From: a virus
Lineage: Duplodnaviria > Heunggongvirae > Uroviricota > Caudoviricetes
Virus record (IMG/VR): IMGVR_UViG_2563366874_000012
Reading direction: 5' to 3' (one strand)
DNA: 50,800 bases
Each line of letters starts with the position of its first letter. The first letter of the stretch is position 1. Of this stretch, positions 11,766 to 17,484 are shown in pieces. The position numbers were made by a program, and so were the translations under genes. Under the pieces are notes generated by a model. It ran no database searches and had not been told where the DNA came from. It was given only the letters and a program-made list of their open reading frames with translations.

Positions 11766-11927
11766 GCCAAATTAACAATCAGGGAACTGCGTGAACTGAA
11801 AGAGAAATCATAATCCAAATCTGAATAATTAAATTTAGCACTGTAAATAAAATTTAATCCTTAACCGGAGGGGGGGGGCTGCACCCTCAAAATATTAGGA
11901 GGCGGCCCGAAAGGGCGGTAATGAAAA

Positions 11928-12431
11928 ATGACTGAATTAACCAAAAAGCAATTAATCGAAGAAGCTAAATTAAAAATAGCGATTGAGAAATGCCACCCCA
12001 ATTCAGGGATGGCACGGGTAGAGGGCGAATTATTCAAAATTGCTCTGGCATCGCTGGAAGCAGAGCCAGTTGGTGATTTTTATGAATACAAACCGGATGA
12101 CTGGTATCAGCGTTCGGCTGGAGATAAAGCGCCAAAATGGACGCCACCCTATGCCGTTTTTCCAGCGCCCGTAGTGCCGGAAGAAATGGATTTGCTTACA
12201 TGCCATCTCGATGGTGTAACTGAAACATATGCTGAGGGATGGAACGCTTGCCGCGCTGCCCTGCTTCAGGGCAAAGGGGAGCCCGGGAAACAAGTTCGCG
12301 AATTGACAATGCTGGTTAAACAATTGGTTAGTCAACTGAAGAAACCGAAACCGGGCTGCAAATTGCCGGATAAAGTGATGGACTACCTGGAGCGAAGCGG
12401 ACTTATAAGCGTGGAGGATGTTTTACGATGA
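11928..12431 (+). CDS. Hypothetical protein
   Basis: 167-aa ORF MTELTKKQLIEEAKLKIAIEKCHPNSGMARVEGELFKIAL...; unusual leader with AGGAGG, a GNRA hairpin and a G9 tract upstream. Confidence 0.5.
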   Translation: MTELTKKQLIEEAKLKIAIEKCHPNSGMARVEGELFKIALASLEAEPVGDFYEYKPDDWYQRSAGDKAPKWTPPYAVFPAPVVPEEMDLLTCHLDGVTETYAEGWNACRAALLQGKGEPGKQVRELTMLVKQLVSQLKKPKPGCKLPDKVMDYLERSGLISVEDVLR

Positions 12432-12511
12432 CCTGGCCTGAAGCATTCACAACGGTAGGAATTGCGATGGCGGTGGCGCTGGTGGTGTATTCGATTTGCC
12501 GCTGGGGTTGA
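12428..12511 (+). CDS. Possible 27-aa hydrophobic micro-protein
   Basis: ATG overlaps the upstream stop (ATGA); MTWPEAFTTVGIAMAVALVVYSICRWG, a single predicted TM helix; below the ORF-track size cut-off. Confidence 0.25.
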   Translation: MTWPEAFTTVGIAMAVALVVYSICRWG

Positions 12512-12524
12512 TAATACTAAATAA

Positions 12525-12543
12525 CCAGCCCTTATGGGGCTGG
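12525..12543. terminator. Hairpin between convergent genes (likely terminator for the KilA-N gene)
   Basis: CCAGCCC-ttatg-GGGCTGG stem-loop; U-rich on the minus-strand side (ttatttagtattat). Confidence 0.45.
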
Positions 12544-12551
12544 CTAATCAT

Positions 12552-13325
12552 TTAGAACTGTTCATTGCCATCGAGGTTAGGTAGCATAATTTTTTCAATC
12601 AAGGCGAGAGCCTTTTTGTCCCGGTCAGCGAAGTATTTCGGGGCATATTGCGGCAACCAAATATTGTTAAAATGTTCTTTGAAATCTGCTAAATATTCAT
12701 TTGGGTACAGCCTTGCAGGGTATACGCGACCATCGGGATATTCATGGTCATAGGTAGGGAATGTTTTGGGTTCTACGTTTCTATTATCTCTTAACCATTG
12801 TGAAAATACTCTTCCTTGTGAAATGTCAGGAACCATTTTTTCTGGGAGTGTGTACCCTGCTTGTTCAAGAGGTGCAACCAAGTTGAATGTCAGTTCATTA
12901 AGAATAGAAAAGTGCGTGTGAGGAATTCTACTACGATTAACCATGTACCGTTTTAAATGTACAGGCATTTCTGCTGTAGTTCTTTCCCCTGACATCCATT
13001 CACGAACCCATCTTGAAACCTGGACTGCAAATTTGGGCGATAGCCACTGCGCTAGATTAATAGCGATGTCAGGATGCACCCATGTCCCTTGGTTTTCAGG
13101 TCTTCCACCTTTAAATGATTGAATTAACTCCGATATGGGAATTCCCATATCGCGTGATAATTCGTCAAAAAACTCTTGAGTAGTTTTGAGTCTAGTGTAA
13201 TCAGAGAGCAGTTTGCCCGCAGTTCTACACATTGATGTGGCGTTTATGTAACCATCTTTGGCACGTAAATGTATTATTTCGCCGTCAATTTCACGAGAAA
13301 TCAAAGATAATTGAAAGGATGTCAT
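12552..13325 (-). CDS. KilA-N domain protein (antirepressor-like DNA-binding N-terminus)
   Basis: 257-aa ORF MTSFQLSLISREIDGEIIHLRAKDGYINATSMCRTAGKLLSDYTRLKTTQEFFDEL, typical KilA-N N-terminus. Confidence 0.65.
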   Translation of the reverse strand: MTSFQLSLISREIDGEIIHLRAKDGYINATSMCRTAGKLLSDYTRLKTTQEFFDELSRDMGIPISELIQSFKGGRPENQGTWVHPDIAINLAQWLSPKFAVQVSRWVREWMSGERTTAEMPVHLKRYMVNRSRIPHTHFSILNELTFNLVAPLEQAGYTLPEKMVPDISQGRVFSQWLRDNRNVEPKTFPTYDHEYPDGRVYPARLYPNEYLADFKEHFNNIWLPQYAPKYFADRDKKALALIEKIMLPNLDGNEQF

Positions 13326-13847
13326 TGAAAATTCCTCAAGTTGGAGAGTTCTGGAACATTAAGGCGAGGTGGCAGTAATGCACCATCTGTAATCTTTTGA
13401 TACTGACGTAATCGGGCCTGATGTGCAACGCCTTGCAAGTATGTAACTCATTGAAAACGATCATTTTTATCTATTGACATCAAATGGCAAACTGTCATTG
13501 TGCGGCTATGGCAAGTGGCAAATGCTTATAAATCATATGGATATAAATAGTACAGAAAGAGTTGTTTTCTCTAGGATATGAGTATACGCCCAATGCTGAT
13601 TGGTTGAATTTTGTTCTTGTTTTAAAGGGTAAGAGTTTAAAGTGTTGGCAGTGATGTATTGGATAGTTAGAATTGCTGTGGGTGCTTGAGGCTATCTGCC
13701 TCGGGCATGAACACCAAAGGTAGATAGAGAAAAGCCCCAGTTAACATTACGCGTCCTGCAAGACGTTTAACATTAATCTGAGGCCATATCTATGCGACAC
13801 ATAGAGATTAGCCTCTTGCGGACCGAAAGGTCAAGGAGAAGCAGGCT

Positions 13848-13973
13848 ATGAAGCAGCAAAAGGCGATGTTAATCGCCCTGATCGTCATCTGTTTAACCGT
13901 CATAGTGACGGCACTGGTAACGAGGAAAGACCTCTGCGAGGTACGAATCCGAACTGGCAGACGGAGGCTCTGA
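13848..13973 (+). CDS. Hok/Gef-family type I toxin homologue with divergent, short C-terminus (possibly inactive)
   Basis: 41-aa ORF MKQQKAMLIALIVICLTVIVTALVTRKDLCEVRIRTGRRRL*; matches recalled HokD/Gef through ...CEVRIRTG then diverges and stops about 10 codons early; 19-codon upstream ORF ends overlapping the ATG. Confidence 0.55.
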   Translation: MKQQKAMLIALIVICLTVIVTALVTRKDLCEVRIRTGRRRL

Positions 13974-14055
13974 TTCGTAGACTACTAATCTGAGTAAAAG
14001 ACCCAGCGGGGAAAGAACCACGCCGGGACTAGTTAATAAGATATTTATAGCGTGG

Positions 14056-14397
14056 CTATTCTTTTTTTGCGGTATAGACTTTTTCGCCTGAGAAGTCTGG
14101 AGCTACCCAAAAGTTAATATTAAACTGAGCATCATCGCTTAGTTCAACACGGTGCCAGTATTGTGGTGGGCTTGTTGCAAAAGCGCCAGCATTAATGACT
14201 ACTTTTATCTCCGGTTCAGTAGCATTCTCATCAGCAAAACCATAATATGTTACAGTACCTTCCATCACGCATAACTGTCCAAAAACACCTGCTGCTGTAT
14301 TATGATGTGTTAATAACGCTGAAGGTACGTTCTCTTTTGTGAAGAACGGAGTTGAGCGTTTGATTACCCAGTCTTTAGGAATTCTCTTGTGTGTCAT
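14056..14397 (-). CDS. YeaR-like DUF1971 (cupin-type) protein
   Basis: 113-aa ORF MTHKRIPKDWVIKRSTPFFTKENVPSALLTHHNTAAGVFGQLCVMEGTVTYYGFADE... aligns by eye with E. coli YeaR (RSTPFW...LSVMHG.V.Y.GYADE...FNIDFFVAPE); GGAGGTGG SD. Confidence 0.6.
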   Translation of the reverse strand: MTHKRIPKDWVIKRSTPFFTKENVPSALLTHHNTAAGVFGQLCVMEGTVTYYGFADENATEPEIKVVINAGAFATSPPQYWHRVELSDDAQFNINFWVAPDFSGEKVYTAKKE

Positions 14398-14765
14398 AAC
14401 CACCTCCCATAAAACATGCATTATAAATGCACCTTTTTGAGGGTTATGTCAAGCTGTTATGAAACACATAATTGATATGTTGATTAGAGGAGAAGATAGA
14501 ATCAATATGGTTGTTTTTCGTATAACTATTTGTTTTACTTTTAGTTTGTGCATTCTGTGTGTTAGGAATAACTTATTAAAGTTTAACTAAAAAATCTCGA
14601 TATAGTCCGCATAGATTACTGTTACTGAATCTTATTGTGTGCATTAGTTGTGTTCTGAAATTTCAATTTAATTACTTATGATATATTTTTAACGATAAAT
14701 GTTTTCCGGGTGAAAGACAGTGGGGGATGAGATAAGCAATATATCATTAATCTTGATTATTTCCA

Positions 14766-14825
14766 GGATGCCTTTACTGTGCATATAAATAAATCATATA
14801 CGCATCAAATAATGTAAAGGCATCC
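14766..14825. repeat. Long inverted repeat (12-bp perfect arms, 36-nt spacer) in AT-rich non-coding island
   Basis: GGATGCCTTTAC (14766-14777) and GTAAAGGCATCC (14814-14825). Confidence 0.6.
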
Positions 14826-15046
14826 TTTTAGATATATCTTATCAAATGTTAATGATTTGAGTGGGAAACATGATTCCAGAAACTAATCATGCGGCTACTT
14901 TATAAAAATAATGCCCATATAAAACAGCCAGCGAAAAGGATTACGGATAAAAAAGGAGCGAGATGTGCATAGTTGTTATTTTCCATGTTTAACCACCTTA
15001 AATAATTGATGATGACGGGATGTGCATCTGTAATGCTTTTGTTGAA

Positions 15047-15081
15047 ATGTTATGATAAAAAAGAACTTTTTCATAACATTA
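15047..15081. repeat. Near-perfect palindrome in AT-rich non-coding island
   Basis: AATGTTATGA-taaaaaagaacttt-TCATAACATT; second GATGTGCAT direct-repeat pair at about 14961 and 15020. Confidence 0.5.
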
Positions 15082-15264
15082 AAATGTAATTTATCTAATC
15101 GTTTTTAATAATAAGTGTTGTATTTCTATCCTTGTATCAGCTATTTGATATGTAGTGTTTGTTCATGTTATGTGGAGCTTTACACCATAGCCAGTTTATT
15201 TATACTTTATTCGTCAGCCTGAACAACTGGCATCTGCTGCACTGCGCCATCGAGAGATTGAGAA

Positions 15265-15864
15265 ATGGCGCATATACAACTGGTCAAACAAACCTCTTCT
15301 GGACTACTTCTCCCGGCGACGCCGGAGAGTTGCGATTTTTTGCATCAAATCAAAATAGGCGAGTGGATACACGCAGACTTTAAGCGTGTGCGTAACTACG
15401 CATTCCACAAGCGTTTTTTCAAACTCCTGCAACTGGGATTCGATTACTGGACTCCGGTCGGTGGGGCGATCACGCCTCGCGAACGAAAGCTGGTTTCAGG
15501 ATTCGTTGATTACCTATGTGAATCAGTAGGCCGGGAACATACGCCAGCTCTGAGCGAAGCCGCAGAGCAATATCTGAATACAGTTGCGACACGCAGAACC
15601 CGGGATACGGCATTGCTAAAGTCGTTTGAGGCTTTCCGCGAGTGGGTAACCATTCAGGCCGGATTTTACACCGAGCATCTTTATCCTGATGGTAGCCATG
15701 GGCGTCGGGCGAAATCCATCGCTTTTGCGAATATGGACGAAACCGAGTTTCAGCAGGTTTATAAATCTGTTCTGAATGTGCTGTGGAACTGGATTCTGTT
15801 CCGTAAATTTTCCTCTCCGGAACAAGTCGAAAATGTGACCGCGCAGCTGCTGGAGTTTGCGTAA
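15265..15864 (+). CDS. Hypothetical nin-region protein (possibly DUF1367-type)
   Basis: 199-aa ORF MAHIQLVKQTSSGLLLPATPESCDFLHQIKIGEWIHADFKRVRNYAFHKRFFKLL...; first gene after the AT-rich island, translationally coupled to the next gene (TAATG). Confidence 0.5.
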   Translation: MAHIQLVKQTSSGLLLPATPESCDFLHQIKIGEWIHADFKRVRNYAFHKRFFKLLQLGFDYWTPVGGAITPRERKLVSGFVDYLCESVGREHTPALSEAAEQYLNTVATRRTRDTALLKSFEAFREWVTIQAGFYTEHLYPDGSHGRRAKSIAFANMDETEFQQVYKSVLNVLWNWILFRKFSSPEQVENVTAQLLEFA

Positions 15865-16914: not shown

Positions 16915-17484
16915 ATGAGAGAACTACCTAAAGATTATTTTTTAGGAGTAGATGATGAGCTCGTCGATTATCTTGAAAAACAAGGGGAAGAGACGATACG
17001 AGAGATTCATCTTTCTAACAAAACCAATGTTGAGAATGGATACAAACTTCTGAACATTCAGATTGTTGGAATTGGTTCATCTTTTTTATTGCTGACACAG
17101 AAAACTAATTTCGATTTTCTCACCGCCGGAATTACCTCATTTACATTACTATGGACATGGTGCGCCATTTACTTGGTATGTACTGGTTTATCTGTGAAGG
17201 TTAGGGGCCTGATCAATGCCCCTCCTGATCATATATATCATGAAAAATATAAGGATATGGAGCCCTCGAGCTTTAAAATATTCGCTGATGCAGGATATTT
17301 AGGACCTGATAAGTTATTGCCGCTTATACGAAGGTATCGCCTTGTTGACTTGAGTGATACAGCAAGAGAGTTACTGTTGGAAAATGAGAAAATCCGCACG
17401 AGTCTCGATAAAGCAAGGATGTATACCATCCTTGCTCCGGTAGCGGCGATGTTTATCTCGGCTGTTTTTTTATATGTTCAATGA
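16915..17484 (+). CDS. Uncharacterised membrane protein (moron between Q and lysis genes)
   Basis: 189-aa ORF, GGAGGTGAG SD; hydrophobic segments LLNIQIVGIGSSFLLL, FLTAGITSFTLLWTWCAIYLVCTGL and C-terminal MYTILAPVAAMFISAVFLYVQ; visibly AT-rich. Confidence 0.5.
   Translation: MRELPKDYFLGVDDELVDYLEKQGEETIREIHLSNKTNVENGYKLLNIQIVGIGSSFLLLTQKTNFDFLTAGITSFTLLWTWCAIYLVCTGLSVKVRGLINAPPDHIYHEKYKDMEPSSFKIFADAGYLGPDKLLPLIRRYRLVDLSDTARELLLENEKIRTSLDKARMYTILAPVAAMFISAVFLYVQ

Follow-up and report, generated by a model that had tools for sequence, protein, structure and literature searches.

A Rac-type prophage carries an STM1808-type DUF1971 gene behind a predicted NsrR operator

Why should a prophage carry a DUF1971 gene, and whom would such a gene serve? 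The question is raised by a short open reading frame (ORF) on the complementary strand (positions 14056-14397) of the Caudoviricetes record IMGVR_UViG_2563366874_000012, all 50,800 nucleotides of which were analysed and are called the window below. The initial annotation had described the product as a paralogue of YeaR, linked it to nitrosative stress and suggested that the gene is lysogenic-conversion cargo. The reading preferred here, with a probability of roughly 0.7, is that the gene is a self-contained moron which provides Escherichia coli lysogens with a second DUF1971 protein, of the type represented by Salmonella STM1808, under the control of the host nitric oxide (NO) sensor NsrR. It is judged to be a real, ordinary but well-wired prophage cargo gene, for which NsrR control and a phenotype would be expected.

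The coding sequence begins at the ATG at 14397, and a Shine-Dalgarno sequence on the same strand (GGGAGGTGG, 14400-14408, read from the sequence) places its GGAGG core 5 nt upstream of this codon. In the promoter alignment of orthologues a GAGG or GGAG motif occupies the equivalent position. RefSeq, where the identical gene is named 'DUF1971 domain-containing protein' (WP_001445776.1), uses the same start. An in-frame ATG at 14421 would give a product of 121 amino acids, but this form is unlikely because the codon falls within the operator and −10 element described below. The 113-aa product is a single-domain cupin. Its membership in the family, which had been claimed without database searches, was borne out on formal search: Pfam PF09313 (DUF1971) matches end to end (profile positions 1-80 of 80, E = 3e-26, 91.6 bits with a cutoff of 23.1). 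The protein also matches PDB 3dl3 (E = 2.6e-59, 82% identity) and the chain of the YeaR crystal structure, 3bb6 (E = 4.6e-25), and its AlphaFold model (pLDDT 88.9) has the double-stranded beta-helix of a cupin. Residues H32, H82 and E85 are invariant among the aligned homologues, and the two histidines are invariant in both of the DUF1971 lineages discussed below.

Database names such as 'tellurite resistance protein TehB' and 'TehB family protein' would point to a different function, a TehB-like detoxification of tellurite or selenite. This explanation is hardly credible. When the protein was compared with YeaR and with the N-terminal domain of TehB, as the initial annotation had proposed, the first alignment held at 42% identity and the second was partial only: the match covers the N-terminal ~100 residues of the TehB model (11-106 of 289 positions) and reaches 48 bits, against a cutoff of 303. 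No S-adenosylmethionine (SAM)-dependent methyltransferase domain, the catalytic part of TehB, was found in the window protein, whose chain stops after the DUF1971 domain. In addition, a yeaR deletion in strain UTI89 had no tellurite phenotype (PMC4959519).

The likeness to YeaR is real, but the term paralogue of YeaR proved imprecise. While identity to K-12 YeaR is only 42%, identity to a second, tightly conserved lineage of ~112 aa is 75-83%, with 80% to the Salmonella 113-aa clusters (P0015 and P0016) and 83% to Kluyvera. The chromosomes of Kluyvera, Leclercia, Pantoea, Citrobacter, the Klebsiella oxytoca group, Raoultella and Salmonella carry this second lineage, as do those of Vibrionaceae, Shewanella, Agarivorans and Neptunomonas. 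Orthologues of YeaR proper, with 60-86% identity to it, were found in Citrobacter braakii, Salmonella (including serovar Saintpaul), Yokenella regensburgei and Buttiauxella noackiae, and these species hold the second lineage as well. Because the same species carry both, the YeaR type and the STM1808 type are, to judge from these comparisons, two long-separated and co-existing paralogous lineages.

The Salmonella member of the second lineage was named through its neighbours. In that order, nhaB and dsbB directly precede the DUF1971 gene of Salmonella arizonae and diarizonae, and in S. Typhimurium the two carry the tags STM1806 and STM1807. The gene that directly follows them is therefore almost certainly STM1808. 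In E. coli K-12, dsbB is followed by umuDC and hlyE, with no DUF1971 gene at that position, and the window gene is prophage-borne instead of following nhaB and dsbB. It must accordingly be a copy acquired by horizontal transfer and not a positional orthologue. The numbering of the conserved histidines suits this lineage but would not suit YeaR, whose first histidine is H30. Purified STM1808 is reportedly a zinc metalloprotein, with H32 and H82 required for zinc binding and for NO resistance. In papers citing Karlinsey et al. (2012), STM1808 is listed as 'putative cytoplasmic protein; NsrR regulon' and is said to aid growth in systemic mouse infection.

A regulatory site of matching type lies directly in front of the window gene. 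The predicted NsrR operator is an 11-1-11 inverted repeat at 14413-14435 (gene strand AAGGTGCATTTATAATGCATGTT), 16-38 nt upstream of the start codon. It differs from the ytfE NsrR site at 3 positions, a level of similarity not found in any of 100 shuffled windows. Scored with a position weight matrix built from 26 distinct CFT073 NsrR sites (Table 4 of Mehta et al. 2015, PMC5320621), it reaches 25.97 bits and ranks 2 of 26, below ytfE only, though the published sites are also the training set. The runner-up in the 50.8-kb window scores 13.2 bits, and the operator score was never reached when the AT-rich region was shuffled 2000 times.

The site was then followed through a phylogenetic footprint of 80 orthologue loci of other species (4-8 kb each). 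Every enterobacterial orthologue locus (~55 species, the Salmonella loci L037 and L082 among them) has an NsrR site at −38 to −50. Each of these sites is the best of its own locus, and all score 20.7-30.4 bits except that of Leclercia adecarboxylata (L012), which has 12.2 bits. At most Vibrionaceae orthologue loci no NsrR site was found upstream; three Photobacterium loci are exceptions. Three other prophage alleles also keep the site (20.7-25.7 bits), and the Shine-Dalgarno sequence and start codon are likewise kept in diverged prophage alleles.

Rodionov et al. (2005) had already included a 'tehB homolog' when they predicted the NsrR regulons of enterobacteria and of Photobacterium profundum. 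Following that prediction, Gilberthorpe et al. (2007, PMC2884951) tested the true tehA and tehB of Salmonella and found no control by NsrR (1.1-fold). Possibly the predicted homolog was not tehB at all but STM1808, a DUF1971 gene to which the name TehB is often wrongly given, and this would account for the negative result.

The connection with nitrosative stress thus survives in altered form. It is better founded than first thought because the window gene has its own strong predicted NsrR operator, while two features of yeaR, the partner gene yoaG and the NarL 7-2-7 site, are missing. In the region 14398-15264 no NarL 7-2-7 site was found at up to 3 mismatches and no FNR site at up to 2 mismatches, and yeaR-like control of the prophage gene by NarL or FNR was ruled out for this reason. 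Fur control of the prophage gene was also ruled out, as the best Fur-box match has 7 mismatches, which is at chance level.

A Fur-box-like sequence, GATAATGAGATTTATTATC, was nevertheless seen in some chromosomal orthologues. It lies at a fixed position near −84 (−83 to −85), just upstream of the −35 element, occurs together with the NsrR site and has 2-6 mismatches to the 19-bp Fur consensus. It is carried by a clade of Kluyvera, Leclercia, Pantoea, Silvania, Buttiauxella, Pseudescherichia and Intestinirhabdus (L004-L024, L034, L081) and by three Photobacterium species (L062, L075, L076). It is missing from the Citrobacter/Klebsiella/Salmonella clade and from the prophage copy. The arrangement suggests dual control by iron and NO in the species that bear the box.

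The promoter elements were identified by eye and with the help of the ortholog alignment. A perfect −10 hexamer, TATAAT (14420-14425, complementary strand), lies at the operator centre, 22 nt upstream of the ATG, and its position implies a predicted leader of ~15 nt. A −35-like consensus, TTGACA (14447-14452, same strand), is 21 nt from TATAAT and 17 nt from a weaker hexamer, CATTTA, and both candidate −10 hexamers sit inside the operator. In the alignment TTGACA lines up with TTTACA or TTGACG across genera, and in the orthologous promoters a 17-nt spacer separates the −35 element from a TATTTT or CATATT within the operator. At the other end of the gene, just downstream of the stop codon, a GC-rich hairpin followed by UCUUUU (14000-14030, complementary strand) is a candidate terminator, with an RNA fold of −26.4 kcal/mol and z = −2.46. 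It faces the 3' end of the convergent hok mRNA. The unit has candidate promoter elements, unusually spaced, and a predicted operator, and the terminator hairpin is weak.

From this layout a four-step course of events is proposed. In an unstressed lysogen, iron-sulphur NsrR would sit on the operator and block RNA polymerase, because the operator contains the −10 element. NO, produced by host inducible NO synthase (iNOS) or by nitrate/nitrite respiration, would damage the NsrR cluster, and the repressor would leave. A monocistronic mRNA with a short leader would then be made leftward, antisense to the phage early-right operon, and would end near the hairpin that faces hok. Finally the 113-aa cupin would be produced, probably with zinc bound via H32 and H82 as reported for STM1808, and would help growth under nitrosative stress. 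Lysogens therefore probably turn the gene on upon exposure to NO, as far as can be predicted from the operator and promoter layout.

The gene lies in a full-length Rac-type prophage that adjoins ttcA, and the window begins at the left end of the prophage. From this end the order is intR, xisR, ralR, recT, recE, kilR, sieB, a repressor and cro-like pair, and ydaT. Replication genes follow, then DUF1627, DUF977, a KilA-N gene, hok/sok, the DUF1971 gene, DUF1367, DUF1364 and DUF1133 (the product of the last is named 'antitermination protein Q' in phage record ON470614), and then lysis genes, trkG and a complete head and tail module. The reported location between the hok locus and the nin region is correct. 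On the left, the hok/sok type I toxin-antitoxin locus (13680-13973, plus strand) is convergent with the DUF1971 gene; it consists of sok RNA at 13680-13850 (Rfam RF01794, 99.4 bits) and the Hok ORF at 13848-13973 ('Hok/Gef family protein' in RefSeq). On the right, the first nin-like gene, DUF1367 (15265-15864, plus strand, identified from its ORF and the annotation of an identical sequence), is divergent from it.

The borders of the cargo became visible through comparison with relatives. A sister prophage (L086) is homologous only to window positions 13668-14011 and 14899-15400, and 91 bp replace the 887 bp between them. Sister Rac-type prophages without the gene run from hokD straight to DUF1367. 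The insertion (14012-14898) contains the gene, its promoter and operator, and ~440 bp of non-coding DNA of ~30% GC. The GC content is ~42% in the gene, ~30% in the upstream stretch and ~50% in the flanking phage genes, which are encoded on the opposite strand. The gene is therefore a moron in the sense of a discrete insertion between phage modules that close relatives lack, and the suggestion of prophage cargo with the anatomy of a lysogenic-conversion gene is upheld. In all three contexts inspected the prophage is of Rac type and the gene is divergent from DUF1367. Left of the gene, the cargo in the two other prophages differs: strain S21 has genes for a BCCT transporter, DUF2254, a LysR protein, a gamma-glutamylcyclotransferase and an MFS protein, and strain AR436 has QueH.

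The closeness to hok allows a reading in which the leftward, NO-triggered transcript matters and the protein does not. Such a transcript would run antisense to the early-right operon and into the 3' end of hok mRNA, and would couple NO stress to hok/sok or to prophage expression. The unit does converge on hok, with ~45 nt between the stop codon and the end of hok homology, and the terminator is weak. However, the same gene and operator occur in chromosomes without hok or phage nearby, and other Rac-type prophages have something other than hok on the left of the gene. Such a role at the RNA level is for these reasons quite improbable. Strong purifying selection at the protein level, described next, also speaks against it.

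Prophage alleles differ from each other by 7-8 synonymous and 1-2 non-synonymous changes. About 11-12% of synonymous sites differ and dN/dS is 0.04-0.06, and the protein is therefore kept by purifying selection. Of 5426 complete E. coli genomes, 104 contain an identical 1.9-kb module. Three phage records contain it too, all from a survey that located phages in clinical E. coli isolates producing carbapenemase. With a threshold of at least 90% identity, gene and operator are present in 457 of the 5426 genomes (~8%). In the same set yeaR is present in 5420.

These figures were also weighed against the simplest rival, namely that the gene is passenger DNA: an intact relic in Rac-type prophages, either kept silent (by H-NS, for example) or made superfluous by yeaR, that brings the lysogen no measurable benefit and whose NsrR site was inherited from the donor chromosome. 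Carriage in only ~8% of genomes, the universal presence of yeaR, the AT-rich insertion with its ~30% GC upstream stretch, the non-canonical promoter spacing and a donor that is not identifiable would all fit. A relic would not be expected to change by only 1-2 amino acids between alleles so diverged at synonymous sites, or to retain operator, Shine-Dalgarno sequence and start codon in diverged alleles. Many enterobacterial species moreover maintain both DUF1971 lineages, and this coexistence speaks against simple redundancy. The passenger explanation is accordingly considered rather unlikely.

The source of the gene was sought in the protein tree. The neighbour-joining point estimate places the prophage allele beside a Kluyvera-like clade, a placement that only 104 of 300 bootstraps share, while 154 mix in Vibrionaceae. 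dS is saturated against every chromosomal orthologue. DNA homology extends through the operator for the Kluyvera-like group only. The protein tree singles out no donor lineage.

Several points weigh against an NsrR-controlled second DUF1971 protein that benefits the lysogen. With yeaR in 5420 genomes, and so nearly universal in E. coli, an extra DUF1971 gene could be redundant. The 21-nt spacing between TTGACA and TATAAT, together with the poor hexamer (CATTTA) found at 17 nt, makes the basal strength of the promoter uncertain. An automatic promoter scan did not flag the DUF1971 unit, because of this spacing, and the terminator scanner made no call at the hairpin, which is weak. On the protein side, the canonical cupin motif-1 histidines are not present in the aligned window protein, and a metal site, if there is one, must therefore be other than the classical cupin site. 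The equation with STM1808 is based on synteny and locus-tag order and not on the deposited LT2 sequence. The searchable literature gave no match for the accessions of the gene or its PHROG family, and no transcriptome or mutant data.

A more far-reaching version of the preferred reading holds that the phage took up an NO-resistance gene of Salmonella type along with the NsrR operator in front of it. Rac lysogens, ~8% of complete E. coli genomes with carbapenemase-producing clinical isolates among them, would thereby acquire an NO-inducible defence missing from the E. coli core genome and a measurable fitness advantage in the inflamed gut or urinary tract. This version is tentative, and the odds are against it. 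A still bolder addition would have the NO-triggered leftward transcript also modulate convergent hok/sok or prophage early transcription.

Some other features of the window were recorded alongside the gene. The slot from DUF977 to DUF1367 in Rac-type prophages (window ~11900-15260; loci L083, L084 and L086) is a hypervariable cargo bay, which in M160133 holds a gene for a NACHT-domain protein and hokD. The AT-rich spacer at 14460-14898 (~440 bp, ~30% GC) contains no convincing ORF, matches no Rfam family and has no homology beyond this module. Its left half always accompanies the gene, and candidate explanations include an H-NS target or a degraded gene.

At the right boundary of the insertion, and outside it, is an unannotated ORF for a hydrophobic peptide of 28 aa (MENNNYAHLAPFLSVILFAGCFIWALFL, 14900-14986, complementary strand), preceded by a good Shine-Dalgarno sequence, AAGGTGG. 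Its stop codon falls exactly at the boundary. Three other alleles keep the frame open, as does a prophage backbone whose nucleotide identity is no more than 80% (MENNKSAHYAPFLSVILFVLCCAWALFL), and the backbone segment occurs in ~1370 E. coli genomes without an annotated feature. No family match was found in NCBIfam or PHROG. The product may be a small membrane protein or toxin.

Further right, at 16915-17484 (plus strand), a low-GC patch (~37%) encodes a hypothetical protein of 189 aa with hydrophobic segments. It lies between the DUF1133 gene and the holin gene, a classic cargo position in lambdoid phages (e.g. stx). The prophage as a whole (~1-50800) appears full-length, unlike the defective Rac of K-12, and comprises integrase, excisionase, recET, an immunity region, replication, lysis, trkG, terminase, a P22-like capsid and tail.

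Part of this picture was known before: the gene was already annotated as DUF1971, and Salmonella STM1808 and E. coli yeaR had revealed the family, the fold and the link to NsrR. Apparently undescribed in the searchable literature are the supply of an STM1808-type gene, which is not part of the E. coli core, to ~8% of complete genomes by Rac-type prophages, its arrival as an 887-bp moron and the retention of a near-consensus NsrR operator. If NsrR does control the gene, it would be a clean example of prophage cargo wired to a host stress circuit through such an operator. If the wider interpretation is true, a phage spreads a Salmonella-type nitrosative-stress factor in E. coli, including multidrug-resistant clinical lineages. 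The system also offers a natural test of redundancy between the YeaR and STM1808 types, because lysogens carry both and non-lysogens carry YeaR only, and it could help to reveal the biochemistry of the family. If the gene is silent or redundant, it would be one more annotated hypothetical cargo gene.

Among known systems, STM1808 provides a close parallel. Both proteins have 113 aa and are ~80% identical, with H31, H32, H82 and E85 conserved, and both are encoded by single genes with a high-scoring NsrR operator just upstream. STM1808 is a chromosomal core gene that follows nhaB and dsbB, with its operator at −50, whereas the window gene is an accessory gene (8% of E. coli genomes), known from sequence, that lies in a Rac-type prophage between hok/sok and DUF1367 and has its operator at −38.

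YeaR (b1797, PDB 3bb6) shares the DUF1971 cupin fold and an upstream NsrR site, which for yeaR scores 23.9 bits and lies at −89. Nitrate and NO strongly induce yeaR, and NarL activates it via the 7-2-7 site, which abuts the −35 element. Its deletion raises the sensitivity of uropathogenic E. coli to H2O2 (PMC4959519). The two proteins are only 42% identical, and yeaR is a core gene in an operon with yoaG (DUF1869), whereas yoaG is missing beside the prophage gene, as are NarL and FNR sites. No ORF was found between the stop codon of the window gene and the convergent hok locus, where a yoaG partner would lie.

The structural-genomics entry PDB 3dl3 ('tellurite resistance protein B') represents a chromosomal Vibrionaceae gene, and most Vibrionaceae loci lack an NsrR site upstream. 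The source of the entry is Aliivibrio fischeri. The name TehB is a misnomer for this entry. In TehB of Haemophilus influenzae (PDB 3m70) the N-terminal domain is fused to a SAM-dependent methyltransferase, while in the window protein the domain stands alone.

Classical morons that arm the lysogen against host defences include sodC of Gifsy-2 and Fels-1 and bor and lom of lambda. The window gene resembles them: a small autonomous unit inserted among phage modules, it has a candidate host-type promoter and an atypical GC content, and it is predicted to help against the chemistry of host innate immunity. It differs from them in its predicted wiring to the NO sensor NsrR through a near-consensus operator.
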